Positions 4,563-21,020 are shown, numbered from the stretch's first letter. The stretch is 57,196 nt of DNA from an uncultured Clostridia bacterium (GCA_947168005.1 CAMVKI010000001.1:1-57196), one strand, 5' to 3'. Numbers and translations are program-made. Notes: generated from the letters alone by a model not told the origin.

Positions 4563-4613
4563 TGGTGCGGGCAACAGGACTCGAACCTGCATGGTTTCCC
4601 ACTGGAACCTAAA
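4563..4613 (-). tRNA. 3' portion (51 nt) of a split tRNA-Leu(UAG)
   Basis: The minus strand reads TTTAGGTT-CCAG-TGGGAAACCAT-GCAGGTTCGAGTCCTGT-TGCCCGC-ACCA. That covers the anticodon loop and 3' stem, a long variable arm, a T-arm with GGTTCGAGTCC, and an acceptor 3' strand plus CCA. There is no D-arm or 5' acceptor strand upstream of it. Confidence 0.85.
4606..4613. repeat. left copy of the 8-bp direct repeat AACCTAAA (attL/attR core)
   Basis: Identical octamer at 54810..54817. It lies exactly where the tRNA sequence ends. Confidence 0.75.
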
Positions 4614-4678: not shown

Positions 4679-5974
4679 TTACCGATTTATAGTCTCTATT
4701 GCCCAGAGCGGCAGATTTAGCAGCCAACCCTCGTCCTTGTAATCAGACATGGAGGTACGGATCGATTGCCGCGGCTGGAATTTTTCATGATAAACCTTCA
4801 AACTCTTCGCCTGCAGATTTGTTTCCGCTTTCACTTCGACCGGGAGGATCTCTTCGCCGTTGTCAATGACAAAATCAACCTCTGCGGTTGCGCGTTCCGC
4901 CGTCCAATAATAGATCTGCAGGCTGCTCTGCGTTTTCAGTTCCTGTAATACATATTGTTCGGTCAATGCGCCTTTGAATTCCCGGAACAGATCGTTTCCA
5001 TCGAGCAGCACGCTCTGCCGAAGTCCGACCATACAAGACAATAACCCAATATCCACAAGAAACAGCTTAAACGCTTTCAGATCCTCGTAGGCTTTGAGCG
5101 GAAGCAGCGGGGCGGAAACCCGATGGACCTTATGGATGAGCCCGCAATCCGCCAGCCAAAGCATGGCGAGCTCGTATTCCTTTGCCCTTGCGCCTTCCCG
5201 CACCAGGCCGTATATAAACTTCTTGTTTTCCTTTGCGAGCTGGGCGGGGATGCTGTTGAACAGCATCCGGATCCGCAGGACGACCTCGTTCGGCGCATGC
5301 TTGGAAAAATCCTGCTCGTAGGCGTCCAGGATCCGGCGCTGGATCTGCCGGACTTCGTTGAAGTCCTTGTGATCGGCAAAGGCCTGCACAGCCTCCGGCA
5401 TGCCGCCGACATAATAGTACTGCTTCAGGCATTCCACAAAGTCTTCCTTAAAGTTGGAGGCCATGCATAGATCCCGATCGCGGATCAGCCCCGCATGGGG
5501 AGCCTTTCCGATCGCCGTCAAAAACTCGGTAAAGGAGAGGGGGAAAAGATCCAGAAACTCCACCTTCCCCACAGGGAAAGATGTGCCCTGGTGAAGCGCG
5601 ACACCCAGGAGGGAGCCGGCACAAATGATTTGATACTGCGGGGCTTCCTCCTGAAAGTACTTCAACGCTGTCAAGGCGCGGGGGACTTCCTGCACTTCAT
5701 CAAAAATGAGCAGGGTCGTCTCCGGATCAATTTTATGCCCGGCAAAAAGTTCGAGCCCGACAAGCAGGCGTTCAGTCTGCAGGCTTCCCTCAAACAACTG
5801 CCGCATGGGGATGTTGTTGTCGAAATTGATATAGACGCAGGAATCATAAGCTGTTTTCCCAAACTCCCGCATCAGCCAGGTTTTTCCCACCTGCCTGGCG
5901 CCGCGGATGATTAGCGGTTTTCTGCCTTTCTTTTCTTTCCATTTGATCAACTGTTCCATTGCGCATCGATACAT
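4679..5974 (-). CDS. AAA-family ATPase with DUF4143-type C-terminal domain
   Basis: Walker A GARQVGKTW and Walker B LLIFDEVQ. About 430 aa with the COG1373-like architecture common on mobile elements. ATG at 5974 is preferred (GGTGAGG upstream). Confidence 0.75.
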   Translation of the reverse strand: MYRCAMEQLIKWKEKKGRKPLIIRGARQVGKTWLMREFGKTAYDSCVYINFDNNIPMRQLFEGSLQTERLLVGLELFAGHKIDPETTLLIFDEVQEVPRALTALKYFQEEAPQYQIICAGSLLGVALHQGTSFPVGKVEFLDLFPLSFTEFLTAIGKAPHAGLIRDRDLCMASNFKEDFVECLKQYYYVGGMPEAVQAFADHKDFNEVRQIQRRILDAYEQDFSKHAPNEVVLRIRMLFNSIPAQLAKENKKFIYGLVREGARAKEYELAMLWLADCGLIHKVHRVSAPLLPLKAYEDLKAFKLFLVDIGLLSCMVGLRQSVLLDGNDLFREFKGALTEQYVLQELKTQSSLQIYYWTAERATAEVDFVIDNGEEILPVEVKAETNLQAKSLKVYHEKFQPRQSIRTSMSDYKDEGWLLNLPLWAIETINR

Positions 5975-6117
5975 GGACCTCACCCCTTCCCTTGTCCTGT
6001 TTTATAGTATACCGAGTTTTTACAAAAAATCAAGCGACTTTTGCTTGATTGCTCACATTTTATCAAACCACTTACGCAAATACATTGATGTATTCAGCCA
6101 ACACTTGCTGTATTTCC

Positions 6118-6981
6118 TTATATTTCCCGCAATGGAAGATTCAGGAAGGATGCCTGAACCGAATATCGACAGGGGTCCTGGCGTTTACGATCCCGCAGGA
6201 TAACATCCTCCGGCAGCTCGTTCAGCCAGCGGCGGCTGAAGCTGGTGCTTCCAAAATATGCGTCAAAGTTGACAACGGGCAGGACGACCCACTCGCTGCT
6301 CTCCTGCATATGTGCCAGATAGTACTGAACCAGCGTAGGAAGCACTGTCTCCGGCACACCCTTCGGCGTCAGCTCCCGCAGGCGGGAGAGCATATCGGCA
6401 GAGAGCGGGACATCATATTTCCGCAGCGGTCCCCGCTCTTTGGCGTCTGCCAGCACATCGTCGAAACGAAGGACCCAACCGCCCTTTGTATCCCTGTGGA
6501 ACAGGGGAACCTGCAGCTGTGTCAGCTTATCGCGCCAGGCCTTCTCAAAGCCTGTTTCCAAAAGCACGCAGTTCTTATATGCCGGCGATGATATCAAGTC
6601 CGAATGGGCTTTGACGAAAGCGCAGATCCCTTTTACATGGCGAAACAGCCAGCCCCGGCCTTTCCCATCCACCAGCTCCGGAAACGCCTCGTGAAGCTCC
6701 GGAAAACACGTTTGATACTGCCAGTCCTCTCGGGGACTGGCTTTTTTCTTTTGCGGAAGACTGCACCAGGCGCAGAGCGCACGCCTAGCGAGATCAACAT
6801 CAGGCTCTTCGGTCTGCCACATATATCCCCTTGCAAGGATGGTCAGGATCCGGCCCAGGCCGTGGAATTCCAAAAGGATATCATAGGTAAAGCGGCCGAG
6901 ATAGCTGTTGTCCCGCTTCCCCTTGGCAGCATAGACGGGCGGCGCTGTATAAGCCCGGAATTCCTCAAACTCATTCAACAT
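6118..6981 (-). CDS. hypothetical protein, translationally coupled partner of the RdRP-like polymerase
   Basis: 287-aa ORF whose start overlaps the stop of the upstream 998-aa gene by 11 nt. No motif recognised. Confidence 0.6.
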   Translation of the reverse strand: MLNEFEEFRAYTAPPVYAAKGKRDNSYLGRFTYDILLEFHGLGRILTILARGYMWQTEEPDVDLARRALCAWCSLPQKKKASPREDWQYQTCFPELHEAFPELVDGKGRGWLFRHVKGICAFVKAHSDLISSPAYKNCVLLETGFEKAWRDKLTQLQVPLFHRDTKGGWVLRFDDVLADAKERGPLRKYDVPLSADMLSRLRELTPKGVPETVLPTLVQYYLAHMQESSEWVVLPVVNFDAYFGSTSFSRRWLNELPEDVILRDRKRQDPCRYSVQASFLNLPLREI

Positions 6982-9967
6982 ACCGCTTCACCTCCCGCAA
7001 CGTCTCCTCCGGGACCAGCGTCCAAAGCAGGTCCCGCCTGCCGAGCGCAACCAGATACCGAATCGCTAACCGGGCCTTCACAAGTAAAAGCAGCTTCCTG
7101 CGGCAGACCTTGGTGGGCTCTTCACTGTAATCCTTTGCGAAAGGCTCATCCGCATAGGCCTTTATCATTTCCCGGAACAGTGGGGAATCTCCCTTCCGAT
7201 ACAGCTGTTTCTGCTGCGCCTCACGCAGCCGGTCATCGGTATCACAGACAAGATCTCCCAGCACGCGATATCCGCCGAAACGGAAATCAAGGAAAAGCAT
7301 AAACCATTCCTCCAGCTCCGGAAGCTGGGCGTAGAGGAAGGCGAGGCGTTCATCACGATCCATCAGATGCCATTGCTGCTCTGTCAGCGCCAGCCGCAGA
7401 GCTGCGATCCGCTCGGGATGCAGCTCGGAAAAAGCGGCGTAAAGCTCATCCGGATCGTACTGCTCCTCCTGACCCCTGCTGTATAGAATCCGGTCGATAT
7501 CATTTTTCTTTGGCTTGATGCGGCTCGGAGAACGGTAATAACGGATGCGCCGCAATACAGAATCGTAAGTCTTCACCAAATCGGAGACTGAGGAAAGGAT
7601 TGCCGGATCCAGAAGTTCTTTCCAGTCAGGCCGTTCCGCAAACGCAAATAGCTCACTGTCCGAAGCGGGCTCCGGCTTCAGCCTCGGCGTCTGATCTTTA
7701 AGCTGCTTTGCAAGATAGGGCAATCTCTCCACGTTAGAGGTAATACTCTTCCAGTCTGTGATTTCAAAAAACAACCGCTTGTCCTTTCGGCGTTTTGCAG
7801 CAGACCAGGCATTGTCGCCGTCTTCATCCAGGATCGTCTTATATTGAAGAAAGGAGCTTCGCGGCTGTTTCCCCGGTCCAAGGTATTGAGACAGGATCGG
7901 CTTGACGCCGCTCTTGGCCGAGTCGATCTCCAGGCCGGTCAAAATCGCAAGGGTTTCCGTTTCTTCCCGGCAGCGCTGCCGTTCCAAAGCAGTGGAGTTT
8001 TCGTCGTATGCGACCACGCTTCGGTTGAAGGCGGCGTTGCAGATCTGCCCGACCCGGGAGGAGAAGGTATCCCGTACAGTCAGAAAGCGATCGTGCCAAT
8101 CGTTGGCATCCCGGATCACCGGATCCTCAGAGGGGATATACAAGAGCGGAAGATTATTGCTGTTGTCCAAAGAATTAAACTCATAATTGCGTTTGACGCA
8201 TTCGTTCAACAGTGGATCGGAGATCGTTTTGACCATATCGCCGTCATAGTCCGCCCCGCCCAGGCGTTCGGCAGCCAGCATCGCCGCGTCCACCATGACG
8301 ACACCGTGCAGATGCTTCAGGTAGAATTTTCGCATATTCTCGGCCTTGCCGTAAGCGGCAAGCTGGATTTCTTCATTCCGTGCGATATGCGGATTTCGCA
8401 GCAGGGTGCATACTTCACCGCTCGTATAAACAGCGCCTGGCGCATAAAACCCATTTTTAACAAATCGCCGCGTCATTGCCACACCAAAGAATGTGCGTTG
8501 GTCTTTTTTCTTTATTTCTAAATGTTCCACGTCGATCAACAGGCTCAGCATCTCCAAAAGGTCGCCGGACAAATACCGGTTGTCCCCGGCCACCGTCAAA
8601 TGGCCGACCGCGTACTCCCTTACGGTTTGATCTGCCGCGTCTGTCAGCTCCTTCACACAGACGGGCTCGTTGACCAACAGGTGATTTTTCTTAACACTGC
8701 GGCCCAGGGGCGTATCTTGCTCTGCAAAATACCGAATCCTGCTCTCTCGATCTGCACACAGATCATAGTATCGCTGCTCGGTGGCCTTCGTGATCCAATT
8801 CCTTGGATCCTCCGCCGGGCTGTGATCCCAGCCGTCCGGCAGATCCCAGGGGCGAAATTCTTCTGCCGTCATGGACAGCGTATTCAGAAACTGATAGTTC
8901 AGCTGTGTAAATGCTTCCGGCTTTGGCTTATTGACGTTTGTGATATACAGGGCGTGGTCGTATTTCCGAAACGTCTCCAGATAGTCCTCCCAGGTCTTTC
9001 CGTTTTCCGTGAGCCAGCCGTATCCTTTGAACATGCTTTTTGTCAGGATCATATCCACCTCAGCGACAGGGTGACGGACGCCGAATATATCCGTGATATA
9101 ATTGCTGCCGCTGCTTTTCAGAAAATCCTTGAAATCCACCTTGTGGACCATGCCCTTCACAAAAGGCATCCGGATCTGGAAAGAAGAATGAATATGCTTT
9201 CCGCAGTACTGCTTGTCAATCTGCTTTGCCAGCTCTTTGGAAATCAAGCCCTCGCCGTCAAAACGGGTGACAGTGAAATCCTTCATCTTTTCGACCCGAC
9301 GGTACTCCCGCATTGCGCCTTTGGAAGCCGCCTCGACTGTAATGACTTTGGCATTTGCTCGGAATTCAGCGTTCTTTACGACAACGACTCTGTGCGGCAA
9401 AGTCAGATCCACAGCGTCGATCCGTGTTCCGCCGGACAGCATCAGTCCGTTATAGGCGTAGAGCTTGGAGAGCTGACATTCCCCGACCTGCAGATCCTGC
9501 ATGATCCTGCGGCGCACTTCTTCGCAGACGTCCGCTCGAAGAAACGACAGCTTCGCCTCCCGGCTCATGTTGCCGGATCGCTCAAAGGCAAAGTATCGGT
9601 GTGGACCGCCGCCAAAATCCAGCGTGATCCCCTCCGGCCGGAACATGGCCTCTGCTTTTTTCTGCCGTTCAAGTTGTCGCTTTGAATTCCCTGTTCCGAA
9701 AATGCCGGAGAAATCCATATAGAAGATTACGTCGGAGAGAGAGATGACGACAGCGTCGTCCTTCGGAAGCGAAGGTTTCCCGCCCTCTATGACAGACAGG
9801 ATCTGATAGAACAGTGCATTGTCCTCCTGGGTCTTGGAAGCTGCTTTCAGGATGCAGTATTCAGTTCCGTTCTTGCTCAAATTGTAAGTGTACCCCACAT
9901 CCGTCTTCCTGGCATATCCCAGCATGGCGGAAGCGGACAGCATATGAATCTGATAACGCAGCGGCAT
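6971..9967 (-). CDS. eukaryotic-type RdRP / YonO-like two-barrel (DPBB) nucleotide polymerase homologue
   Basis: 998 aa with three motifs in the order and spacing of cellular RdRPs: SSFQIRMPFVKG (aa 261-272), LLRNPHIARNEEI (aa 522-534) and GGADYDGDM (D573/D575/D577, nt 8237-8251; DxDGD metal-binding signature). Confidence 0.7.
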   Translation of the reverse strand: MPLRYQIHMLSASAMLGYARKTDVGYTYNLSKNGTEYCILKAASKTQEDNALFYQILSVIEGGKPSLPKDDAVVISLSDVIFYMDFSGIFGTGNSKRQLERQKKAEAMFRPEGITLDFGGGPHRYFAFERSGNMSREAKLSFLRADVCEEVRRRIMQDLQVGECQLSKLYAYNGLMLSGGTRIDAVDLTLPHRVVVVKNAEFRANAKVITVEAASKGAMREYRRVEKMKDFTVTRFDGEGLISKELAKQIDKQYCGKHIHSSFQIRMPFVKGMVHKVDFKDFLKSSGSNYITDIFGVRHPVAEVDMILTKSMFKGYGWLTENGKTWEDYLETFRKYDHALYITNVNKPKPEAFTQLNYQFLNTLSMTAEEFRPWDLPDGWDHSPAEDPRNWITKATEQRYYDLCADRESRIRYFAEQDTPLGRSVKKNHLLVNEPVCVKELTDAADQTVREYAVGHLTVAGDNRYLSGDLLEMLSLLIDVEHLEIKKKDQRTFFGVAMTRRFVKNGFYAPGAVYTSGEVCTLLRNPHIARNEEIQLAAYGKAENMRKFYLKHLHGVVMVDAAMLAAERLGGADYDGDMVKTISDPLLNECVKRNYEFNSLDNSNNLPLLYIPSEDPVIRDANDWHDRFLTVRDTFSSRVGQICNAAFNRSVVAYDENSTALERQRCREETETLAILTGLEIDSAKSGVKPILSQYLGPGKQPRSSFLQYKTILDEDGDNAWSAAKRRKDKRLFFEITDWKSITSNVERLPYLAKQLKDQTPRLKPEPASDSELFAFAERPDWKELLDPAILSSVSDLVKTYDSVLRRIRYYRSPSRIKPKKNDIDRILYSRGQEEQYDPDELYAAFSELHPERIAALRLALTEQQWHLMDRDERLAFLYAQLPELEEWFMLFLDFRFGGYRVLGDLVCDTDDRLREAQQKQLYRKGDSPLFREMIKAYADEPFAKDYSEEPTKVCRRKLLLLVKARLAIRYLVALGRRDLLWTLVPEETLREVKRYVE

Positions 9968-10087
9968 TTATATCACCCCTTTCTCTGGCATGATCATATC
10001 ACAAAAACCCTCAAAATGCAACATAGATACTGCTCCCGCATTTTTCATCCACGGGAGTAAATTTATATCTATGAGAGGATTTTTACC

Positions 10088-11851
10088 ATGGATGATTTCA
10101 ATCGTTACTCCCCGCGCTTCAAGCTTGTGGACGGCTGCCTGACCGAGATCCATATGACACGGTCCGGCCCTGCCGAAAGGAAGCTGTGCAACTTCGCGCC
10201 GTATCTGACTGAAGAGATCACGTTGGATGACGGTGTGGAAACCAGCTCCCGGATCAAGCTTCGGGGCACACATCAGAACGGCAGAGAACTGCCGGAAATC
10301 GAAATTGCCGGCAGCGATCTCCCGGCCTTCAACTGGCTGCCGGATCATTGGGGTATGGACTGTATTCTGGAAGTCGGCAAGAACATCAAAGAGCTTGTCC
10401 GCTACGCGATCCAGACCACCGCAGACCATGCCGAACGGAAAACGGTCTACACCGTGACCGGGTGGAAGAAGATCGAGGGGCAGTGGGAATTCCTGCTGCC
10501 GGGAGACGATGCCCACACGGTCAAGCTGCCCGGAAAGCTCCACGGCTTCCGGGCTGAGGCGAAAGCGTCTGCGGAAGAGCTGTCCCTTCTGCGAATGCTT
10601 TTGACAAACGGGCCGGCAGAAAAGGAGATCCTGCTTCCCCTGCTGGCGCTGACCTTCCTCTCGCCGCTCAATCACTTCCTTGCGCTGGCAGAATGCGAAC
10701 CGAAGTTCGTTCTGTTTCTGATCGGCAAGACCGGCTCCCGCAAGAGTACGTTGGCAGCTCTGATGCTGTCCTTCTTCGGAAGGTTTACGGCAACAGAGCT
10801 GCCCATGTCGTTTCAGGACACGGCGTACAGCATTCTATATCACGCGTTCTCCCTCAAGGACGTGCTGACCTGCGTCGATGACTTCCACCCCGCATCCCGG
10901 TTCGAAGAAGCGAAACTGACGGCGACGGCGCAAACCGTCTTGCGAGCCTTCGGCGACCGCGTCGGCAGAGGCAGACTGCGGCCGGATGTCACGCCGATGG
11001 AGGCAAGGCCGCCCCAGGGCAACGCGATTGTCACGGCGGAGTTTCCGCCCGACATCGGAGAGAGCGGAACCGCCAGATACTTCGCGTTGGAAATGAACGC
11101 CAAAAGCGTTGACCTGAACCGCCTCTCGTTTTTCCAGGCGCAGGCAGCGCAAGGCGTTCTCGCCCGATGCATGCGTTCCTATCTGGAATGGCTCCGGGGC
11201 GTCTTCCTTCGACGGGAAGAAAGTGAAAAGAGTTTTCTCTTTCTTCTGAAGGACAGCTTTCAAAGCTACCGGGATGAATTCCGGGCCAGCGGGATCGCCT
11301 GTCATGGAAGAGTCGAGGAGACTGTCGCCTGGCTTCGGATCGGTATGGATTATCTGCTGCGCTTCCTTTTGGATGCGAATGTCCTGGGGCAGGCTGAAGC
11401 GAAGCAGCTCGGGGACGAGCATGAAGCTCTGCTGTATCAGCTCGCAGCCAAACAGGCGGAGAGCATCGCGGAAGACCGGCCGACGCAAAAGTTCCTGCGC
11501 AAGCTCCATGCGCTGCTGGAAGCCGGACAGGTTTGTCTTCTGCCGAAGGACTCCTGTGAAGAGTATCCCCCAAGCAACTGTGTCGGCCGCGAGGACGATA
11601 CCTATTGGTATCTGTTCGGGGACATTGCGCACAAGGCGGTACGGGAATGGTGCGAGAGACAGGGAGAGTCCTTTTCCGTTTCCTGCAAGGGCCTGCTCAA
11701 AGCCTTGGCAGAGGAGGGATACCTGGAGCCCGCCCAGGGACAGAACACCCGCGCAGTCCGTCTCGGCGGGAAACCGAAACGTGTCGCCTGCCTGTGGAAG
11801 GATAAGATCCGTACCGTAACGGAGGCAGGCTTATTCACGGAAAACGTGTAA
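10088..11851 (+). CDS. P-loop NTPase, putative DUF927/Cch-like replicative helicase
   Basis: 587 aa. P-loop LIGKTGSRKSTLAAL and Walker B VLTCVDDF in the middle of the protein. Good RBS (GAGAGGA). The size and its position upstream of the serine recombinases match DUF927 helicases of integrative elements. Confidence 0.5.
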   Translation: MDDFNRYSPRFKLVDGCLTEIHMTRSGPAERKLCNFAPYLTEEITLDDGVETSSRIKLRGTHQNGRELPEIEIAGSDLPAFNWLPDHWGMDCILEVGKNIKELVRYAIQTTADHAERKTVYTVTGWKKIEGQWEFLLPGDDAHTVKLPGKLHGFRAEAKASAEELSLLRMLLTNGPAEKEILLPLLALTFLSPLNHFLALAECEPKFVLFLIGKTGSRKSTLAALMLSFFGRFTATELPMSFQDTAYSILYHAFSLKDVLTCVDDFHPASRFEEAKLTATAQTVLRAFGDRVGRGRLRPDVTPMEARPPQGNAIVTAEFPPDIGESGTARYFALEMNAKSVDLNRLSFFQAQAAQGVLARCMRSYLEWLRGVFLRREESEKSFLFLLKDSFQSYRDEFRASGIACHGRVEETVAWLRIGMDYLLRFLLDANVLGQAEAKQLGDEHEALLYQLAAKQAESIAEDRPTQKFLRKLHALLEAGQVCLLPKDSCEEYPPSNCVGREDDTYWYLFGDIAHKAVREWCERQGESFSVSCKGLLKALAEEGYLEPAQGQNTRAVRLGGKPKRVACLWKDKIRTVTEAGLFTENV

Positions 11852-12020
11852 CATCCGTTACAGGATCAAAAATCCCTTGCGCCGTCTCAAAAATCTCTGA
11901 TCCCCAACAGTGACGCAGACGATACGCAGGCGTTACGTGTAACTGCTCCGTATCGCCTGCGTTACTGAAATGCAGAAGCCGAAAACCCTTGCCCGGACTG
12001 GGTTTTCGGCTTCGTGTAAC
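11845..12020. repeat. cluster of GTAAC/GTTAC pentamers and inverted repeats (candidate origin or operator region)
   Basis: GTAAC-N4-GTTAC (11848-11861), GTTAC-GT-GTAAC (11932-11943), GTTAC (11961-11965) and GTAAC (12016-12020). CGTGTAAC occurs three times. ACGCAGGCG (11924-11932) pairs with CGCCTGCGT (11954-11962). Confidence 0.3.
11978..12010 (+). terminator. hairpin after the helicase-like gene
   Basis: GCCGAAAACCC / GGGTTTTCGGC form an 11-bp stem followed by TT. Confidence 0.4.
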
Positions 12021-12454
12021 TGATAAAACGCCAACTGAAACCCAACAGCGTCAAGGGCCGTGTCAGGCCCGTCGTGGCCCTGTGTGCGGTTTTCTTTCGC
12101 AGGACGGAAAAGTACTCGGCGGCAGAGGAAAAGACGGCTTGCGCCGAACACAGTGCGATTTGTCAGATTGTACAATTCGCCAATGGCCCGGGCCCTTTCG
12201 ACCGCCCAGGGACGGTCGAAAAGAAGCAGGAAAAAGCGGTGGGGTCGTTACACCCCCCGCGGTCCACAGCGGACGGCAACGCCGACCGCGGAACCCCCAT
12301 TTTTGCGAGGGTTTTGGCCTCGGCCTGTTGAGTTTGCACAAAGGCGTCAAACTTGTCAAGTCACACCGGTTCAGTGTGACGCAAGGCCCGGGAACAGCCC
12401 TGTTTCGGCGGTTTCTTGGGTATGATAATCAGAAAATGAAAGGAATTCATCTTT

Positions 12455-12910
12455 ATGAGCAGCAAAGCTAACAACCCAACAAACGCGATCCGCACCTCGA
12501 TCTATATCGACGAGGGGCTGATCAAGAAAGCGGAAATCCTCTACGGAGAAGCGGACGTCACGACCTTCTCCCAGTTCGTTCGCAAGGCTGTGGAGAGCTA
12601 CATCGACCAGCTGCTCCTTGGAAATCACAGTCCTGAGCTGACGAAATCCATTCGCAAGGCTCTGGCCGACGAGGTCAAGCCCATCGCAGTCCGGCTTTCG
12701 AAGGCGCTCTATCGCTACGCCATCGAGCTGGATATGCTGACGCAGGTGATGGCCTACGCGGAGATTCCCTACGACGCGATGGACGAGATCCGGCGGGAAG
12801 CCAACCAGCGTGTCGCCAGAATGCGCGGCGCCGTCGATCTCAATGTGCTCTTCCAGGAAGAGCGTTACAAACAGATCCTGCGTGATCTCGAGGAGGATGG
12901 AAACGGATGA
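12455..12910 (+). CDS. ribbon-helix-helix (CopG/Arc-like) DNA-binding protein
   Basis: 151 aa. The N-terminal segment IRTSIYIDEGLIKKAEILYGE...FSQFVRKAVESYI fits a beta-strand/helix/helix RHH pattern. RBS GAAAGGA. Confidence 0.55.
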   Translation: MSSKANNPTNAIRTSIYIDEGLIKKAEILYGEADVTTFSQFVRKAVESYIDQLLLGNHSPELTKSIRKALADEVKPIAVRLSKALYRYAIELDMLTQVMAYAEIPYDAMDEIRREANQRVARMRGAVDLNVLFQEERYKQILRDLEEDGNG

Positions 12911-12994
12911 ACACAACAAAACACATGCCTGCGGGCGGCTTCCGGATGCGGAGGCCGCCCATTTTGTATTTCCGGAGAAAGGAGCGGAAGGACT

Positions 12995-13165
12995 ATGGCG
13001 AAACGAAAGCAAAACATCACGAGCGTGACCTTCTCTTACGTCGGCACCGACGAAGAGTTTGAAAAATTCCTGGACGCTCTGCTCCGGGACTACCTCTCTG
13101 TAGATACTCTGCACAGCTTGCCGGATGAGCATTCTGTGCAATCCGTAGATTCCGGCGCGGCGTGA
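12995..13165 (+). CDS. small hypothetical protein (56 aa) directly upstream of the recombinases
   Basis: Hand-translated, because it is below the track's length cut-off: MAKRKQNITSVTFSYVGTDEEFEKFLDALLRDYLSVDTLHSLPDEHSVQSVDSGAA. GGAG lies about 9 nt upstream of the ATG. Confidence 0.35.
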   Translation: MAKRKQNITSVTFSYVGTDEEFEKFLDALLRDYLSVDTLHSLPDEHSVQSVDSGAA

Positions 13166-13236
13166 TTCTTTGCGCTCGCTATTCAGAAAACACTGTGATA
13201 TGGTTCGGTTGAAAACCGAACCGGAAAGGAAACGTT

Positions 13237-14853
13237 ATGAAAGTTTGGTTATACTATCGTCTCTCCAGAGATGAGGACGAGGAATTGAATTCGCTGAACA
13301 ACCAGCGGAAAATCATCTATGGCTACGCCGTATCCAACGGTCACGAAATCGTCGGCGAATCCTTCGACGACAATATCAGCGGGATGCATTTCAACCGTCC
13401 GGGCATTGATAAAATCTACGAAGCCGTGGAGGGAAAGCTGATTGAGGCGGTCATCGTCAAGGATCTCTCCCGGCTTGGGCGGCACCGGACGCAGACTGCG
13501 CTGTTCATTGACTACCTGCGGGAACACAATGTCCGGGTGCTTTCCGCCACGGAGAACATCGACACCTGCAACGAAAACGATGATCTGATCGTCGGCTTCA
13601 AGGGCCTCATCAACGATTTCTACGCCAGGGACATCGGCAAGAAGATCCGTTCCGGCTACCGGCAGAAGCAGAAGGAAGGCATTGTGATCACGCCGCCCTT
13701 CGGCTACTTCAAGGACAAAAACGCCGGGCAGATCATTATTGTACCGGAGGCGGCGGATACGGTCCGGGAGATCTTCACCGCCTATCTCTCCGGCGTGGGG
13801 CTTAAAACAATCGCCCGTCAGCTCAACGAAGAGGATCGAAAAACGCCTGCCAGGATGCAGCTCGAGCTGATGCAGAAGCACATGCCGGATCGTTTCGACC
13901 ATGTGATCAAAAAATATCTCTGGGACGCCACCATGGTCCGCCGCATCCTGCGCGACGAAAGCTATGTTGGAACGCTGATCTGTCACAAGTCTGAACGCAA
14001 CAAAATCAATCGAACCTTCCGTTATACGGAGCCCGACGAACAGTACCGTCACGAAAATTATCTTCCTGTCATCATTGCGCCGGAGCTTTGGTCCCAGGTC
14101 CAGGCGCTTATGACCCAACGGAAAGAGCAGAACGTCCGGGCCGCGCCGGGCCAGCCGATCCACCGTTACAGCGGTCTGCTTCGCTGCGCGGACTGCGGAC
14201 GGACCTTCATCGGCAAGCGCGTCAATCTGAAAAGCGGCCAGCGGATCGAGTATACCTGCGACAGCTATCACCGCTTCGGAAAGGAGCAGTGCTCCTCCCA
14301 TACGGTTTTGGAAGAGGAACTGGACCAGCTTCTCCGTGCGGAGCTGCTGCGCACGAAGGAAGAATACGCAAGGCTGTGGGCCGCGCTGGAACAGCGTATC
14401 GCCCAATGGACGCCGAAAGAAAGCGCAGCCCAGGGTCAAATCACTGCCTGTCAGGAAAAGATCCGACGTATCGAAGAAGAATTGGAGGCAATCCTTATGG
14501 AACGGATCCGCGACAAGGAAAACGAAGCCCGCTACGACCGCATGATCCAGAAGCGGGAGGCACAGCTCGTTCAGCTTCAGGCACAGATCACGGAGCTGGA
14601 AAATATCTCCACTGTGCTGCGCAAGCGGCAGGCTTCCCTCAGGAAAGACATCTCGATGATGGATAGTATCCTTGCCGACGGCGTCCTTGGAGAAGCCCAG
14701 CTGCGGATGCTGATCGAGAAGATCCTCGTGCACGAGGAGAACGGAGCGATCAGCCTTGAATTCCGGATCAGGGCTCCCTTCCAGGCGCATACGGAATATT
14801 TTGAGGGCGGGCTGACGCTGGAACGGATCCGTGAATTGCTGAGGGAGGCATAA
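13237..14853 (+). CDS. large serine recombinase (TnpX/TndX/CcrA-like, with DUF4368-type C-terminus)
   Basis: N-terminal resolvase domain with the catalytic Ser in YYRLSRDED, then KDLSRLGRH. Recombinase domain, Cys-rich zinc ribbon (CADCGRTF...YTCDSYHRFGKEQCSSH), a coiled coil and a C-terminal EKILVHEENGAISLEFRIRAPF block. Confidence 0.9.
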   Translation: MKVWLYYRLSRDEDEELNSLNNQRKIIYGYAVSNGHEIVGESFDDNISGMHFNRPGIDKIYEAVEGKLIEAVIVKDLSRLGRHRTQTALFIDYLREHNVRVLSATENIDTCNENDDLIVGFKGLINDFYARDIGKKIRSGYRQKQKEGIVITPPFGYFKDKNAGQIIIVPEAADTVREIFTAYLSGVGLKTIARQLNEEDRKTPARMQLELMQKHMPDRFDHVIKKYLWDATMVRRILRDESYVGTLICHKSERNKINRTFRYTEPDEQYRHENYLPVIIAPELWSQVQALMTQRKEQNVRAAPGQPIHRYSGLLRCADCGRTFIGKRVNLKSGQRIEYTCDSYHRFGKEQCSSHTVLEEELDQLLRAELLRTKEEYARLWAALEQRIAQWTPKESAAQGQITACQEKIRRIEEELEAILMERIRDKENEARYDRMIQKREAQLVQLQAQITELENISTVLRKRQASLRKDISMMDSILADGVLGEAQLRMLIEKILVHEENGAISLEFRIRAPFQAHTEYFEGGLTLERIRELLREA

Positions 14854-14857
14854 GGAA

Positions 14858-16147
14858 ATGCGAGTGTGGCTGTACGCGAGACTGTCCAATGACGATGACA
14901 TGGAGCGAAACTCTTTGGAGAATCAGCTTCAGATCACAAAAGACTTTGCGTTTGCTCACGGCCACGCCGTTGTCGGATCCTCCTTTGACGACAACCGCAG
15001 CGGGATGCGTTTCGACCGGGAAGGGCTTGATGCCCTGTCCCATGCTGCCGAGGCGGGAGAGCTTGACGGCGTGATCGTCAAGGACCTCTCCCGCCTCGGA
15101 CGTCATCGGGTCCAGACAGCGCTCTTCCTCGAGTACCTGCTCCAATGCGGTGTCCGGGTCCTCTCCGTTACAGAGGGCCTGGACACCGCCAACGATGAGG
15201 ACGATCTTATCATCGGAGCCCGCGCCCTCATGAACGACTACTACACAAAAGACATTGGCCGCAAAATCCGGACAGGCTATCGGCAGAAGCAGCAGGAAGG
15301 GATCGTGATCCGCCCGCCCTTTGGGTACGAGAAGGATCGGAACATCAAAAAGATTGTGTTGCACCCGGAGGCATCCGAAACGGTAAGAATGGTGTACCGG
15401 TGGTTTCTTTCCGGGCTCGGGCAAAAGGAAATCGCCAGACGGTTGAACGAGCTGGGACGGGAGACCCCGGCACAAGTTCAGGACGAGCGCTGCGGAAAAG
15501 CCGAGAGCCGGAATTATATTTGGAGCTATCCCAGTGTAAAGAATATCCTGCGGGAGGAAGCCTACACCGGCGTTCTGGTCAATCACAAGTCCTCCGAACA
15601 TCACGGGAAGAAGCTGCCCGTCCGAAAGGAAGAGCAGCTTCGACATGAAAACTATTATCCAGTCCTGATTGAACGCAGCGAATGGGAACAAGTGCAGCGG
15701 CGGCTTGAGGAGCAGACCGCCGACTTTTATGCCTCTCGCCCGTCCATGACCAACCGCGCCGTCCATCGCTACGCGGGGCTGTTGGAATGCGCCGACTGCG
15801 GCGCTCCCTTCGTCCCGATCATCCGCCGCTGGAACGGAACGGAGCGGATCGAATATGTCTGCAAGACCTATGGCCGTTTGGGAAAAGCCGTTTGCCCCTC
15901 CCACCGGATCCGCGAGGAAGCAATCGACGAAAAGCTCCGATCCTTCATCGCTGCGCTGCGCGACGCCATGCGATCCGAGCAGCTGAACGTTCACAGGCTT
16001 CAAAAGCTCAATACTTTCAAAGCCCCGGCACTCCGGGCCAGAAAGGAGGAACTGCAGCAGGCGCTTCTTCGCCTGGATCGTGAAGTAGACAGGCTTATCA
16101 TGGAAAAGATTTCCGAACGAAAAGATAGAAACTCCGATATTCTCTGA
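14858..16147 (+). CDS. large serine recombinase (second, shorter paralogue)
   Basis: YARLSNDDD catalytic Ser motif, KDLSRLGRH, zinc ribbon CADCGAPF...YVCKTYGRLGKAVCPSH. 429 aa and lacks the long C-terminal extension of the first copy. Separated from it by a 4-nt gap. Confidence 0.9.
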   Translation: MRVWLYARLSNDDDMERNSLENQLQITKDFAFAHGHAVVGSSFDDNRSGMRFDREGLDALSHAAEAGELDGVIVKDLSRLGRHRVQTALFLEYLLQCGVRVLSVTEGLDTANDEDDLIIGARALMNDYYTKDIGRKIRTGYRQKQQEGIVIRPPFGYEKDRNIKKIVLHPEASETVRMVYRWFLSGLGQKEIARRLNELGRETPAQVQDERCGKAESRNYIWSYPSVKNILREEAYTGVLVNHKSSEHHGKKLPVRKEEQLRHENYYPVLIERSEWEQVQRRLEEQTADFYASRPSMTNRAVHRYAGLLECADCGAPFVPIIRRWNGTERIEYVCKTYGRLGKAVCPSHRIREEAIDEKLRSFIAALRDAMRSEQLNVHRLQKLNTFKAPALRARKEELQQALLRLDREVDRLIMEKISERKDRNSDIL

Positions 16148-16300
16148 TGTGATAGATTATGAAGCGAACAGAACCGAGTAAAGTGGAATCACTGAGTATG
16201 CACCGGAGCGGAGAGAGTAACATGAAATAATAATCGCAAGAAAAGCGCATTTGTGTTTCGATAAACTATATGCTTGCAGAATGGCTTTGGAGTGGAAGCG

Positions 16301-17593
16301 CTACAGCCGTTCCTCCTCCAGCTTATGCAGCTTGGATCGCAGAATAACGCCTTGGAGGAGAAGGGCGGCGAGGAGGCAGCCGCAGACGGTGAGCAGGAGC
16401 CAGAGGGGGACGGTCCTGCCCTTATCCTCCTGCTCTGTCGTGGGGACTGGGATCGGAGCAGGCTCTTCCACTGTGACGTGCAGGGGCTCGGAAAAGAAGG
16501 CTTCATTGCGGGAGGCGTCTTCATAGACCACGGTCAGCGTACCCTCTGCCTGGCCAAGCGGCGCTGCGGTTGTGGAGAAGGCCAGCTTCCCGGTGACGCT
16601 CTCGCCGCCGGGCAGATTGCCCACCAGCATAGTCTGGCCGCGCACGAAGTCGCCCAGGTCCAGGGTCATGCGCAGATTTTTGACCTCGTTCGCGCCAAGA
16701 TTCATCAGCTCCACGCTGATCAAGGCGCTCTCGCCCTGGATCACGGTATCTGCCAGCGTCACGGGGCCGTGCTCCAGCCGGAGCGTCTGTACGACCGGAA
16801 CCGTCAGAAGGGCCTCGGCGCTGCCCTCCCCCCGCAGGGAGCGGTAGGAGAGGCAGACCTGGAGCTGGTGCGCTCCCGGCTGGGCCTCCGCCGAGACTGT
16901 GATCGGCAGGGTGACGGTCTGTTCCCGGCCCGGCAGGAGCTTTTCCAGGCGGAGGCTGTCCGTCTCGGTCGGAAGCAGTTCCCCGGCAGTCTCTGAATAA
17001 GACAGGGCAAGATCCGTAATCTCTGCCGTCTCAGATGCGTTCCGCACCCGGATCGTACAGCTTCCGGGCTCACCCTGGGTCAGCGCGGCGTCCAAAAGAC
17101 GGAGCTCCGCCGTCACGGGTGTGGGGTCGTCCAGCCCGCCCCGGATGCGGACCACCAGGGACAACTCCGTTTGGAGGGGGGTTCCCTCCGCGTCCTGTCC
17201 CTCCAGGTGCAGCTTGGCCGGATAGTCTCCGTTGATCCGGTCGTCGTAGAGCCGATAGCAGAGGCGCAGAGGCCAGAGACCGTCCGAGTTCGGACGCAGC
17301 TTCACTTGCATATTCTGGGGGAGGAAGGGGGAAAGACCCTCCCGTTCCGGCTCCAGCCAGGCCGTGAGCTCCCCCACGGCCTGGTCGCTTGCGATGGGGA
17401 AATATCCGATCCATTTTCCGTTGACCTCCTCCGGCGCGTATCCCCGCGCCCAGGAGCGGTTGCCCATGCCGTAGAGGATCGCGTCCTCGTCCAGGCGGAA
17501 GGCCTCCGTTGCTGCCAGGGCTGATCCGAACACCGGGACCATGCAAAGCATCAGGCTAAATATAAGAAGCAAAGCAAGCAGACGGCGCATCAT
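16301..17593 (-). CDS. secreted, membrane-anchored surface protein with repeated Ig-like (CARDB/DUF11-type) domains
   Basis: Signal peptide MMRRLLALLLIFSLMLCMVPVFGSALA and a C-terminal TM helix (PLWLLLTVCGCLLAALLLQGVIL). Beta-rich repeats in between. A 4-nt ATGA-type overlap joins it to the upstream permease gene. Confidence 0.6.
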   Translation of the reverse strand: MMRRLLALLLIFSLMLCMVPVFGSALAATEAFRLDEDAILYGMGNRSWARGYAPEEVNGKWIGYFPIASDQAVGELTAWLEPEREGLSPFLPQNMQVKLRPNSDGLWPLRLCYRLYDDRINGDYPAKLHLEGQDAEGTPLQTELSLVVRIRGGLDDPTPVTAELRLLDAALTQGEPGSCTIRVRNASETAEITDLALSYSETAGELLPTETDSLRLEKLLPGREQTVTLPITVSAEAQPGAHQLQVCLSYRSLRGEGSAEALLTVPVVQTLRLEHGPVTLADTVIQGESALISVELMNLGANEVKNLRMTLDLGDFVRGQTMLVGNLPGGESVTGKLAFSTTAAPLGQAEGTLTVVYEDASRNEAFFSEPLHVTVEEPAPIPVPTTEQEDKGRTVPLWLLLTVCGCLLAALLLQGVILRSKLHKLEEERL

Positions 17594-20274
17594 CCCACCT
17601 CCCGGATATTCTCGATCACGCTCCGCCGCAGCAGGCGGCGGCTCCGGCGGGCGATGGACGCCCAGCAGAGCAGAGCCGTCAGCAGGGCGACCAAAAGCTG
17701 GGCCAGGAACGCAAGGGGGAGCGTTTCCCGCACGGTATTCTCCACGATTCGCATACTCACCAGCAGACAGACCACCGCGGCCAGGAGCCAGCCGACGCCC
17801 ACCTGGACGGCGCTCTGCAGGCCGTATCCGGCGCGCAGGACGCTGCCGCTCATGCCCACAGCCCGGAGGGTGCCGATGGTCCGCCGCTCAGCCTCCATCT
17901 GCCGGATGCCGGTCCCGGCGACGACCCGGACCGAGAACCAGATCAGGAGCCCGACCACCGCCGCAATGGCGATGAGTCCGGCCTGCCCCTTCTGGCGGTT
18001 TTCCGCCCGAGCCTCGATCCGGTTATAGACGTGCAGCGTCCCGACCCGGGCCGCGATCCGCTCCAGCCGGCCGAAGTCATAGGCGCAGGTCGCCTCGTCT
18101 GTGCCGGGCTCCAGGAACACGTTGAGATCGGAGAGCTTTCCCAGTCGGAGCCCCATGGCCCGGAAGCCCGCCGGGGTCGTAATGAGCTGCGGCTCCTGAA
18201 TGCCGTAGATCCGTTCGACGTCCACAAACTGAGAGCTGATCAGCCCCCCCACCTTCACCGTGGCCTGACAGCGCTCCGCCTGCCGATACAGGGCCAGATA
18301 CTCCGCCTTGGAGCGCGAGACCGGCGCACCGTCCTCCGCTTCGGCGCAGAGCTGACAGAGGGAGAGCGATTGCCCGGGCAGGAAGGAATCGTTGGAGATA
18401 TGGAGCCAGCCTTCGTCAGCAGGCTGCGGCATCATAGAGATCGCATTGCCGTACTCGTTTTTCCCCAAGTAGTAGTCGGGCAGGCAGAGCAGGACCTCCT
18501 GTCCGGCGTCCAGGGCCGCCCGGTCGATGGCCCCGTCGGTCAGATTGGGGGCATAGCGCTCCGGCTCGTCGGTCAGCAGAACGGGCAGGGTAAAGGGCGG
18601 CGTCTCCAGCTCCAGCAGTTCCATGGCCGCCCGGACCCCCGGCGCATCTGCGCCGCTTTGGTTGGAGGTGTAGAAGATCCAGTTTTTCGCGCACTGTCCC
18701 AGGTAGTCGCCCTCCGGCTGCTCCGTCAGCAGGACGGCGGTCCGATACAGTGTTTGCAGGGCGGTCACGCCGGGTAGGGCACGGATCTGGGCCAGATCCG
18801 CGTCCGAGAGGGAGATCAGAGGGAGCGCCGTGCGCAGATCATCCGGCAAGACGAAGCCGGTCTCGTTATCCCCGTTCGTTGCAGAGAAATCCGGCTCATT
18901 CTCCCGGGGCAGGATGGCGCGGATCGCCTCCCCGCCCAGGAGCACGCCCGCAAAGGACATCAGGCAGAGCAGTCCCGTGAGCAGGCAGATCCCGAGCTGG
19001 CGAACAGGATGCAGGCGCAGTCTGCGCAGGGCCATCAACCGCGCAGGGCGGAAAACGGCTTTTGGCCGGAAGCGCCTTGCCTTGCGAAGGGTCTCCGTGT
19101 CCCGGATGAGGCTCATGGGCCGGGTGCGGGAGGCCCGGAGCAGGGGCAGGAAGGATGCCAGCAGGATGAAGAGGAAGCTCAGAGCCAGCATCGGGATCAG
19201 GGCGAGAGGAGGCAGCCAGAAGCGCAGACTGTCCGGTACCAGCGTACAGAGCCCGCGCACAGCCAGCACCGCCGCACCGACGCCCAGGGGCGAGAGCAGC
19301 AGGGCCAGCAGCAGGCTCTCTCGCCCGAAGATGCGGCGGATCTGCCGCCGGGTGGCGCCCACGGCTCGCAGCATGGCGATCTCCTCCCGCTTGCGGCTGA
19401 GCTGGCTGCCCAGGGCAGCGGTGACGCCCAGCATGGAAAAGAGCAGCAGGCTCCCGCCCAGCAGCAGGATCAGGATTCCAAAGCCTTCATAGTTGGCCAG
19501 GTATTCCAGGATCCCCATATCCTCCATGTGCTCGGCAGGTCCGAAATAGAACCAGCCCCAGAGGCTGATCCGGAAGACCGGAAGGCCCCCTGCGGCGGCG
19601 GTCACCTCGTTCAGCCCCACGCCGTTTGCAAAGCGCAGGAGCAGGATGCGGACGGTGCGGCCTGTGGCAAAGGGCGGCTCCGACGCGCTCACAAAGAGCT
19701 GGGGCAGGCCGACGTTCTCCCGCTTGGAGAGGCTGGCGCGGAGCGACTCGTCGCTGAGCTCGCCCTGGCTCAGCACCACGCCCACCAGGGTATAGGTCCG
19801 GGTCTCCTTCGCCCCGTCGATGGGCTGGATCTCCAGGCTCACGCTGTCGCCCGGCTCAGCCTCGGGAAAGAGCTTGTCCAAAAGCTCCATCTCCACGGCA
19901 AGCTCTCCCGGGGCCTCCGGCATCCGGCCGGACCAGAGCTGCCGGTTGGACAGGGAGGCTCCGCCCGCGTCGTAATACCCCACGGCGCAGTCGCCGCTGC
20001 GGCCCAGATAGTACAGCGTTCCGGTTTCGGCAGCGAGGCCCTGCCGCAGCAGCTCTTCCCCAGTCTCCGGCCCGGCGTCGTAGACGAAGGCGTCCTGCCT
20101 GCCGTATTTCCGGTCCAGTTCGGCCTTGCGGCCGGCATAGACGGCCAGCAGGGTCAGTACCACCGTGCAGGTCAGAAAGATCGCCGACAAAATGCCCGCG
20201 CTGAGACCCAAGTATTCCCGCAGATTGGCCCGGATGCCCGCTCCGGCCACCCGGTTCACGGTCAGTTGTTTCAT
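17590..20274 (-). CDS. ABC transporter permease, FtsX/MacB-BceB type (double FtsX)
   Basis: 894 aa. N-terminal TM helix after MKQLTVNRVAGAGIRAN, then several TM clusters separated by large extracytoplasmic domains. Overlaps the ATPase gene stop by 4 nt. Confidence 0.8.
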   Translation of the reverse strand: MKQLTVNRVAGAGIRANLREYLGLSAGILSAIFLTCTVVLTLLAVYAGRKAELDRKYGRQDAFVYDAGPETGEELLRQGLAAETGTLYYLGRSGDCAVGYYDAGGASLSNRQLWSGRMPEAPGELAVEMELLDKLFPEAEPGDSVSLEIQPIDGAKETRTYTLVGVVLSQGELSDESLRASLSKRENVGLPQLFVSASEPPFATGRTVRILLLRFANGVGLNEVTAAAGGLPVFRISLWGWFYFGPAEHMEDMGILEYLANYEGFGILILLLGGSLLLFSMLGVTAALGSQLSRKREEIAMLRAVGATRRQIRRIFGRESLLLALLLSPLGVGAAVLAVRGLCTLVPDSLRFWLPPLALIPMLALSFLFILLASFLPLLRASRTRPMSLIRDTETLRKARRFRPKAVFRPARLMALRRLRLHPVRQLGICLLTGLLCLMSFAGVLLGGEAIRAILPRENEPDFSATNGDNETGFVLPDDLRTALPLISLSDADLAQIRALPGVTALQTLYRTAVLLTEQPEGDYLGQCAKNWIFYTSNQSGADAPGVRAAMELLELETPPFTLPVLLTDEPERYAPNLTDGAIDRAALDAGQEVLLCLPDYYLGKNEYGNAISMMPQPADEGWLHISNDSFLPGQSLSLCQLCAEAEDGAPVSRSKAEYLALYRQAERCQATVKVGGLISSQFVDVERIYGIQEPQLITTPAGFRAMGLRLGKLSDLNVFLEPGTDEATCAYDFGRLERIAARVGTLHVYNRIEARAENRQKGQAGLIAIAAVVGLLIWFSVRVVAGTGIRQMEAERRTIGTLRAVGMSGSVLRAGYGLQSAVQVGVGWLLAAVVCLLVSMRIVENTVRETLPLAFLAQLLVALLTALLCWASIARRSRRLLRRSVIENIREVG

Positions 20275-20957: not shown

Positions 20958-21020
20958 ACGAGATCCCTCCTTTCTGCCTCTATTCTCTCACAGGAAACTT
21001 ACTTCCGCGTGACGCCCGGC

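Follow-up and report, generated by a model that had tools for sequence, protein, structure and literature searches.

Two groups of staphylococcal elements offer the closest models for the locus described here: the Rep protein of Staphylococcus aureus pathogenicity islands (SaPIs) and the Cch2 helicase of the staphylococcal cassette chromosome SCCmec both recognize iterons directly downstream of their own genes (PMC7581432). Outside the staphylococci, SCC-like replicative islands with serine recombinases carry pairs of an A-family polymerase and a single-stranded DNA-binding protein (Pol-SSB; PMC10061031), and some of these primase islands of Bacillota occur in Clostridioides and Clostridium, inserted in the RNA gene ssrA (Rice 2023, PMC10061031). 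The late operon of SPbeta is read by a different enzyme, YonO, a processive DNA-dependent RNA polymerase (PMC5467207). In 2010, the YonO-like polymerases encoded in Firmicute chromosomes were described as 'enigmatic' (PMC2919709); their transcription of special gene sets was only guessed at in 2017 (PMC5467207), and one paper makes passing mention of 'transposon relatives' of YonO (PMC7824862). Here we analyze a 57,196-nt stretch of DNA from an uncultured Clostridia bacterium (the window, to which all coordinates refer; L001 and similar labels denote fetched loci or contigs used for comparison), and describe in it an integrative island whose backbone sets a predicted YonO-like RNA polymerase beside a predicted helicase of the Cch/SaPI-Rep type and two large serine recombinases.

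With the SCCmec ccr locus (LP1413-Cch-CcrAB or CCPol-MP-Cch2-CcrC) the island shares a predicted Cch-fold helicase with repeats directly downstream of its gene, a polymerase and a small obligatory partner beside the helicase, adjacent large serine recombinases, a single chromosomal target with short direct repeats, variable cargo, and a lack of transfer genes. The two differ in that: (i) the SCCmec polymerase is an A-family DNA polymerase, whereas that of the island is classed as a two-barrel RNA polymerase; (ii) the island partner has no resemblance to the oligonucleotide-binding (OB) fold, and the recombinases are not Ccr orthologues; (iii) the polymerase operon is divergent from the helicase gene, whereas in SCCmec it lies upstream in the same operon; and (iv) the target is the anticodon loop of a tRNA-Leu gene rather than the 3' end of rlmH (orfX), the host belongs to the gut Clostridia, and most kin of the island encode relaxases. 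An earlier reading of the DNA (hereafter the sequence-only reading) had likened the module to the ccr gene complex, and half of that analogy holds: helicase fold, recombinase pair, repeats and cargo agree, but the polymerase, Ccr orthology, the rlmH site and the OB-fold of the partner do not. The module appears to work like the replication-recombination cores of SCCmec and SaPIs; of the features that define SCC it has the helicase, but not the Ccr orthologues, the rlmH site or the accessory open reading frames (ORFs). The same reading had suggested a replicative, excisable cassette family outside the staphylococci, an idea that, in general form, had already been published for the A-family Pol-SSB pairs (PMC10061031). 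In those islands the polymerase is of the A family and the partner has an OB fold, in contrast to the unrelated two-barrel polymerase and orphan-fold partner found here.

Among SaPIs and other phage-inducible chromosomal islands (PICIs), which have the arrangement Pri-Rep-ori, SaPIbov1 Rep is the best structural match of the island helicase, a likeness that extends to self-loading, a C-terminal winged helix and candidate iterons directly downstream. Unlike these elements, the island has neither an archaeo-eukaryotic primase (AEP) nor a tyrosine integrase, and it lacks genes for phage interference or packaging (terS, cpm, ppi); it measures 50 kb rather than about 15 kb, and its integration would be carried out by large serine recombinases. 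With YonO, the island polymerase shares the family, the eight catalytic-site residues, and residence in a mobile element with a large serine recombinase; SPbeta integrates via SprA. The island enzyme is, however, only 21% identical to YonO and about 160 residues longer, is always accompanied by a 287-aa partner (no homologue of which is annotated beside yonO, as judged by annotation only), and is found in non-phage islands beside mobilization, partition or replication genes, with no late structural genes. The relatives of the island are similar to integrative mobilizable elements (IMEs) of Bacillota in their integrase (large serine or tyrosine), relaxase (MobA/VirD2-like or MobL), NikA-like protein and maintenance module, and they are often integrated beside tRNA genes. 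The element in the window, in which no relaxase was found, falls outside the IMEs, and the IME descriptions in the literature searched do not mention a YonO-like polymerase-partner module. Nor did that literature describe an obligatory partner of the polymerase, the conserved box, a combination with a Cch-type helicase, or the splitting of a tRNA gene with delivery of a replacement. The island and its relatives now place YonO-like polymerases in a defined context, the non-phage integrative elements of gut Clostridia, in which the old question about them becomes testable.

A tRNA-Leu gene split at the anticodon loop

According to our best explanation, positions 4606-54817 of the window constitute a 50.2-kb integrative genomic island (50,204 bp) of a gut Oscillospiraceae-type Clostridia bacterium. 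For this explanation as a whole, including the replication and transcription steps proposed below, our confidence is somewhat better than even. An 8-bp direct repeat, AACCTAAA, is present at either end, in agreement with the short border repeats noted in the sequence-only reading, and each copy is part of one half of a broken tRNA-Leu(UAG) gene (attL and attR, Table 1). Joining the two halves yields a perfect 83-nt tRNA-Leu(tag) as identified by ARAGORN. The insertion point is the anticodon loop, where the core AACCTAAA is common to both halves, and two metagenome contigs (L140 and L184) contain intact tRNA genes that match both halves at 100% identity wherever the tRNA portions align. In L001, a locus with 79% polymerase identity, the same attL junction is found directly beyond the partner gene and is followed by the same chromosomal flank. 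The genes beyond the island are chromosomal: to the right lies a phosphotransferase system (PTS) gene, and to the left are genes for radical SAM, nitroreductase and TetR proteins.

The attP site rebuilt from the island ends reads CGGAGGTGAC-ACAACCTAAAGGCTAA-GTCAACTCCG, with inverted arms that agree at 9 of 10 positions, and the predicted circle junction across it is ...CGGAGGTGACAC-AACCTAAA-GGCTAAGTCAACTCCG.... Inverted arms around a core are the layout that large serine recombinases use. At attB, a natural dyad symmetry is supplied by the anticodon stem. The island also carries an intact tRNA-Leu(UAG) gene, 63 bp inside attR and identical to the broken gene at 57 of 83 positions, which presumably replaces it; the Rfam scan returned nothing besides tRNA. 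The result is an integration strategy in which a serine-recombinase island breaks a tRNA gene at the anticodon loop and brings the replacement with it.

A smaller element of 11.7 kb, with breakpoints at 4409 and 16115, was considered and dropped as the main model, the tRNA halves being 50 kb apart; the 4409 breakpoint is explained by a 148-bp insertion together with strain differences. The 148-bp insert (4409-4562) separates the tRNA 3' end from the chromosomal flank, is missing from L001 and present in L081-L084, and is rich in hairpins (e.g. GAAAAGGCAGGCGCTTGATGCGTCTGCCTTTTC); a miniature repeat element and a terminator cassette are both conceivable. At the opposite border, just beyond attR and upstream of the 5' end of the broken tRNA gene, positions 54895-54978 hold three tandem copies of a 28-nt unit (TTCTCTGCTGAGGCCGACGGGCAAACAT).

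The conserved backbone and its relatives

The left 11.5 kb of the island is a conserved backbone that encodes the polymerase, its partner, the helicase with the GTWAC repeats that follow it, a putative ribbon-helix-helix (RHH) protein, a 56-aa ORF and the recombinases, and every feature of the 10-kb module outlined in the sequence-only reading was recovered at its position. Exact-sequence look-ups of the proteins encoded in the window found none on record. We classify the polymerase as a YonO-like two-barrel RNA polymerase on the basis of family membership and active-site residues. It matches the Pfam RNA-dependent RNA polymerase (RdRP) family PF05183 (1.9e-14, 53.7 bits against a cutoff of 23.8) and phrog_8308 (5e-53), and a tblastn search of phage genomes recovers yonO of SPbeta (SPBc2; E 6e-10, 21% identity over residues 118-594) as well as the 'RdRP' genes of Thomasclavelia phages (4e-37). 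The two-barrel active site is defined by eight residues: Asp, Arg and Lys in the first barrel, and R-x-P and DxDGD in the second (PMC2919709). In an alignment with YonO and four relatives, D237, R266, K271, R524, P526, D573, D575 and D577 are invariant. Based on these matches and residues, the view that the enzyme is a DNA polymerase or primase-polymerase was rejected. A defence reading of polymerase, partner and helicase received no support from PADLOC.

The partner gene is translationally coupled to the polymerase gene, and a partner lies directly downstream of the polymerase in all 62 relatives with enough downstream sequence, at a median gap of 16 nt. Although 1892 homologues were retrieved, none is named. 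The AlphaFold (AF2) model of the protein has a predicted local distance difference test (pLDDT) value of 88, and a comparison with the PDB and BFVD gave no match better than E 0.7. Some 90 residues show a sub-threshold similarity to winged-helix repressors; fold searches revealed no OB-fold or SSB resemblance, unlike what is seen for MP of SCCmec. An hhalign comparison with the sigma-like protein of L209 (see below) returned nothing, and a match to sigma factors was not found. Direct searches with both the partner and the helicase (Pfam, NCBIfam, PHROGs, PADLOC and PDB sequences) gave no match.

Between the polymerase and helicase genes lies the 120-bp divergent promoter region (9968-10087), which is AT-richer than its surroundings, as had been claimed (37.5% GC versus about 55% around it). 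A plausible sigma-A promoter for the polymerase gene is formed by a -35 element TTGCAT (10021-10016), a 17-nt spacer and a TGnTATGAT -10 element (9998-9993). A simple promoter scan of 9800-13300 found no sigma-70 site at its threshold and missed TTGCAT-17-TATGAT; our call is based on conservation across loci, since the layout (arm)-AAAAAGT-GTGGGAGCAGTATCTATATTGC-N17-TGnTAnAAT recurs upstream of the polymerase in about 60 of them. The conserved box of the window, CGGGAGCAGTATCTAT, has arms CTCCCG (10057-10052) and CGGGAG (10038-10033). In its general form, (G/C)GGGAGCAGTATCTAT (window 10016-10058), the box is kept upstream of the polymerase in L001-L077, among elements whose proteins are only 43-60% identical, often together with an A-rich loop and an upstream inverted-repeat arm that covaries with the box variants. 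RNAalifold found no structure in the box alignment, in which loop lengths differ and MAFFT had added no gaps; inverted repeats were consequently tested per sequence against shuffles, and 44% of the loci reached p<0.05.

The P-loop protein encoded on the other side of this region has the predicted length of 587 aa and the Walker A and B motifs GKTGSRKST and VLTCVDDF. Family searches with the protein itself were empty, and its identification as a helicase is therefore based on longer homologues and on the predicted structure. A HMMER scan retrieved 5817 cluster representatives, many of them 850-1100 aa long and 33-40% identical, and the longer homologues carry an N-terminal primase of one of three types: DnaG zinc-ribbon plus Toprim, Prim-Pol plus PriCT, or NrS-1-type. 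Weak DUF927 matches over the P-loop region were obtained for 7 of 10 scanned homologues (E 4e-7 to 6e-3; 4 above the Pfam cutoff). The AlphaFold model (pLDDT 85.5) was matched by Foldseek to SaPIbov1 Rep (8tch; E 5e-16, TM 0.57/0.67) and to Cch of SCCmec type IV (5dgk_A; E 5.6e-15, TM 0.53/0.59), and more weakly to 7ola, the SaPI5 primase-helicase, SV40 large T antigen, PriRep1 and D5, while the C-terminal ~117 residues match the winged-helix protein 5vfy/5vfx with a probability of 1.00. As judged by this model, the protein is a Cch/SaPI-Rep-type initiator helicase composed of an N-terminal beta domain, a P-loop ATPase core and a C-terminal winged helix. The profile search suggested in the sequence-only reading thus had a divided outcome: the protein matched neither DUF927/Cch nor D5 directly, but its longer homologues lead to DUF927, and D5 appears among the weaker structural matches.

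The spacer downstream of the helicase gene is probably non-coding, as had been proposed, since the only ORFs in it show lower conservation at the protein level (40% to L001) than at the DNA level (75%). Seven of the 42 GTWAC sites in the window are concentrated in 200 bp across the helicase stop codon (11816-12016), where 0.15 would be expected, and the first of them falls in the final codons of the helicase gene. When the window is compared with L001, no other part of the spacer is as well conserved as this block, and repeats of the YGTNACA type follow the helicase stop in L001, L005, L006, L007, L018 and L029. A Cch-type helicase with adjoining origin-like repeats would be in use well beyond the staphylococci. 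At about 12442, five near-identical relatives (L081-L084 and L087) lose homology, and L082 has an IS110-family transposase there (8000-9178), which indicates that the population includes variants with an insertion sequence (IS) in the spacer ahead of the RHH gene.

Both recombinases contain the three Pfam domains of large serine recombinases (Table 1), as the sequence-only reading had them, and the catalytic serine motif YxRLS at residues 6-10. They are paralogues with 45% identity (E 4e-128). The suggested likeness to CcrA/CcrB is limited to their being an adjacent pair, for the NCBIfam scores of the two proteins are far below the cutoffs (CcrB, 87.4 and 75.5 bits, cutoff 900; CcrA, 74.2 and 68.8, cutoff 700; CcrC, 73.1 and 31.3, cutoff 900), and the XisF model scores them equally well or better. 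By these scores they are generic large serine recombinases and not Ccr orthologues. Their distance from the left end of the island, 8.6-11.5 kb, fits the 9-11 kb given earlier. Of the two small genes upstream, the 151-aa ORF is where the RHH protein had been placed, but its RHH-like N-terminus is recognized by eye only and no Pfam family matches it. It is deleted in L001 and is related (BLASTP E 2e-6) to a small protein that sister elements encode between MobL relaxase and polymerase. The 56-aa ORF is possibly a directionality factor. Like the 151-aa ORF it matches no Pfam family, and neither of the two is thus a DUF950 (SaUGI), DUF960 or DUF1643 protein.

Relatives of the polymerase were found in 97 stretches of GTDB species genomes, mostly from Oscillospiraceae and other gut Clostridia, and these yielded 79 related loci; cultured carriers are Intestinimonas massiliensis Marseille-P3064 (L062), Pseudoflavonifractor gallinarum DSM 107456 (L021), Lawsonibacter hominis NSJ-51 (L011) and Owariibacterium komagatae 13GAM1G (L069). 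IMG/VR, with 2.9 million viral contigs, contained a single relative, which argues that the elements are not phages. Upstream of the polymerase, and always divergent from it, are interchangeable modules: (A) large serine recombinase, relaxase, NikA and helicase; (B) large serine recombinase, ParB, relaxase, NikA, RHH and ParM; and (C) tyrosine integrase, MobL and RHH. Of the loci, 40 have 6 kb or more of sequence upstream; among these, a relaxase is encoded by 34 and a large serine recombinase by 23, and a tyrosine integrase, the helicase and ParM by 8 each. The frequency of relaxases indicates that the family consists mainly of integrative mobilizable elements. Pfam scans of the window, which covered all but a few small cargo ORFs at ~37.4-42.9 kb and the paralogue at 50539-52644, found no relaxase or other transfer gene; the earlier remark on missing transfer genes is correct for the window, but the family is not transfer-free. 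The element in the window and L001 are relaxase-less variants, and the former must rely on a relaxase in trans, on other transfer routes or on vertical inheritance.

Two loci with a helicase 59% identical to that of the window, L209 (7636-9758) and L210 (7763-9810), have a DUF6076 protein and a sigma-70-like protein in the polymerase-partner slot (Sigma70_r4 2.8e-6 in L210, above cutoff). The uncharacterised DUF6076 protein (410-429 aa) may merit study as a functional alternative. An intact tRNA gene beyond the integrase, away from the polymerase, was observed in several relatives: tRNA-Ala cgc in L045, L057, L060, L061 and L071, and tRNA-Pro ggg in L012, L020 and L024. In L045 its distance from the large serine recombinase gene is ~50 bp, and in L012 and L020 some 170-180 bp separate it from the gene for the tyrosine integrase. 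Targeting or carriage of tRNA genes may be general in this family of elements with YonO-like polymerases.

Table 1. Features of the island and its borders (window coordinates; a dot marks features without strand)
Feature	Position	Strand	Remarks
attL, 3' half of broken tRNA-Leu(UAG)	4563..4613	-	core AACCTAAA at 4606-4613
AAA_14/DUF4143 ATPase, candidate defence gene	4679..5983	-	AAA_14 2.4e-29, DUF4143 1.5e-38; PADLOC PDC-S01 2.8e-186
Obligatory partner, 287 aa, orphan fold	6118..6981	-	gene overlaps polymerase ORF by 11 nt
YonO-like single-chain two-barrel RNA polymerase, 998 aa (predicted)	6971..9967	-	Pfam, PHROGs, tblastn, active-site residues
Control region	9993..10058	-	predicted sigma-A-type promoter for polymerase; conserved box with inverted-repeat arm
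Cch/SaPI-Rep-type (DUF927-like) initiator helicase, 587 aa (predicted)	10088..11851	+	no fused primase; predicted structure and homologues
Candidate replication origin	11812..12025	.	7 GTWAC repeats; 29-nt inverted repeat (11908-11967); perfect 14-bp hairpin (11975-12013)
Spacer between helicase and RHH genes	11852-12454		603 bp
Putative RHH DNA-binding protein, 151 aa	12455..12910	+	terminator hairpin at 12933-12960
Conserved 56-aa ORF upstream of recombinases	12995..13165	+	71% aa identity in L001; called gene in L080, L085
Large serine recombinase 1, 538 aa	13237..14853	+	Resolvase 6.7e-26, Recombinase 2.7e-20, Zn_ribbon_recom 3.9e-13; phrog_95 integrase 1.4e-97
Large serine recombinase 2, 429 aa	14858..16147	+	Pfam Resolvase, Recombinase, Zn_ribbon_recom; without last ~110 residues of recombinase 1
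Mosaic cargo	16148..54663	.	ABC/FtsX, MacB/HlyD efflux, two-component system, BlaI/BlaR1, serpin, ECF (extracytoplasmic function) sigma, MerR, XRE, duplicated lipoprotein units
Intact tRNA-Leu(UAG) inside attR	54664..54746	-	ARAGORN; Rfam tRNA 56.2 bits
attR, 5' half of broken tRNA-Leu(UAG)	54810..54849	-	core AACCTAAA at 54810-54817

Proposed mechanism and competing explanations

We propose that the recombinase pair would excise the island as a circle. By analogy with SaPI Rep and SCCmec Cch2, the C-terminal winged-helix domain of the helicase could then bind the repeats downstream of its own gene and open the origin, allowing the circle to replicate. The polymerase gene would be read by the host RNA polymerase from the conserved sigma-A-type promoter, and the polymerase-partner complex would act as an element-specific transcriptase, as YonO does for the SPbeta late genes, with DNA recognition supplied by the partner. 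In SPbeta, YonO activity had shown itself in element-specific transcripts that resist rifampicin. Such transcription would probably drive the divergent replication and recombination operon. An element-specific transcription module is the function we favour over a primase role, with roughly even confidence, because the sole characterised relative, YonO, is a transcriptase and because a sigma-70-like protein and DUF6076 fill the same slot in L209 and L210; besides priming, other roles take up the remaining probability. A self-contained transcription system of this kind could become an orthogonal expression tool for Clostridia.

Several observations weigh against this explanation. An empty site with the flanks of the window was not found (120 contigs have an intact tRNA gene, none with matching flanks), and the excised-circle junction was found neither in the fetched loci nor in IMG/VR; excision and replication are therefore inferred. 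The GTWAC repeats could instead be an origin of transfer (oriT), as relaxase-bearing relatives have this spacer ahead of their NikA and relaxase genes. The helicase lacks a primase, and none is encoded elsewhere, which fits a priming role of the polymerase. The proposed DNA binding by the partner is based on sub-threshold winged-helix matches; no significant structural match was obtained. The conserved box occurs once per element rather than upstream of several operons, with no extra copies in the window, and it is present in L210 (~9950), a locus without a YonO-like polymerase. Instead of a promoter of the island polymerase itself, the box may be a host promoter or an operator. Finally, the second recombinase is frameshifted in L080 (8076-9341; 221 + 143 aa), a 95.8%-identical relative, and may be dispensable or decaying.

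The alternative that survives best is that polymerase and partner form the primase of the element, the counterpart of CCPol-MP in SCCmec or of Pri in the SaPIs, and make RNA primers, either where the Cch-type helicase has opened the origin or on the single strands that rolling-circle or conjugative transfer leaves. We regard it as unlikely. It would account for a helicase whose kin are usually fused to one of three primase types and which is unfused here, and for the occurrence of the polymerase-partner pair in relaxase-only elements, which likewise need complementary-strand priming. QDE-1, a eukaryotic member of the family, is capable of de novo initiation on single-stranded DNA. RNA polymerases can act as primases in other systems, and the set of polymerase, small partner and helicase with downstream repeats parallels CCPol-MP-Cch2 (PMC7581432). 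A priming role is, however, difficult to reconcile with the finding that the polymerase occurs with this helicase in just 8 of 40 relatives, and that close homologues of the helicase pair with the sigma-like protein and DUF6076 and not with the polymerase. Moreover, the partner lacks the OB-fold or SSB resemblance expected of an MP counterpart (PMC10061031), and the only characterised member, YonO, is a processive transcriptase (PMC5467207). A more specific version, in which the pair is a dedicated primase or replication initiator that serves both the Cch-type helicase and relaxase-driven single-stranded DNA in place of DnaG-, AEP- or NrS-1-type domains, strikes us as rather unlikely; if true, it would represent a further primase class of mobile elements, built on the RNA-polymerase/RdRP fold.

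An improbable alternative concerns the extent of the mobile unit, which might be the 11.5-kb backbone alone (~4.6-16.1 kb), with the 38-kb cargo representing older or tandem islands at the same tRNA gene, as in composite SCC elements. The abrupt end of L080 homology in the last codons of recombinase 2, the very mixed GC content of the cargo (44-68%), and the terminal position of the recombinase gene, beside a tRNA gene, in many relatives could all be understood in this way. The window, however, has no further attB-like, att-like or core-like site, either at ~16.1 kb or elsewhere; the sole matching tRNA half is located at 54.8 kb; and the scanned ORFs of the island contain no second integrase and no recombinase other than the adjacent pair.

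A prophage remnant or a SaPI/PICI-type satellite, with the RNA polymerase as a phage late-gene transcriptase, is very improbable. YonO is indeed a prophage enzyme (PMC5467207), and the top structural match of the helicase is SaPIbov1 Rep, but the window yielded no genes for capsid, terminase, tail, lysis or packaging interference, the one relative in IMG/VR stands against 97 stretches in bacterial genomes, and the relatives carry relaxase and NikA mobilization modules. True membership of the SCC family, with a ccr gene complex homologue outside the staphylococci, would explain why a Cch-fold helicase adjoins a pair of neighbouring large serine recombinases in an island with flanking repeats and variable cargo, but is hardly credible given Ccr scores at ~10% of the cutoffs and no better than those of XisF, recombinases that are recent paralogues, a tRNA anticodon loop as target instead of rlmH, small ORFs that match none of DUF950, DUF960 and DUF1643, and relatives that carry relaxases, ParM/ParB or tyrosine integrases.

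Cargo and accessory genes

Everything to the right of the recombinases is interchangeable. L080 is 95.8% identical to the window over 6895-16115; from there on, within the final codons of recombinase 2, all similarity is lost. L001 has yet another cargo; the cassette-like variation anticipated in the sequence-only reading is real, and the locus is not invariant. The Pfam scan, from which a few small ORFs at ~37.4-42.9 kb and the paralogue at 50539-52644 were left out, detected no integrase, phage or transfer genes in the cargo. On the left side, the ATPase with AAA_14 and DUF4143 domains, encoded between the partner gene and attL, is regarded as accessory because it is absent from L001.

Within the cargo, a two-gene unit of ~3.3 kb is present in tandem (47271-50645 and 50524-53930, 71-78% nucleotide identity). 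Each copy encodes two putative lipoproteins (686/701 aa and 381/420 aa), and an ECF sigma factor gene comes next (53932-54411). Direct repeats of 300 nt with 94% identity (36507-36806 and 39300-39599) surround a 2.8-kb segment of low GC content (45-49%), which may be a recent duplication or insertion. The serpin is full-length (25969-27306; Pfam Serpin 8.3e-87), and a BlaI/BlaR1-type sensor-repressor pair is encoded at 22760-24029.

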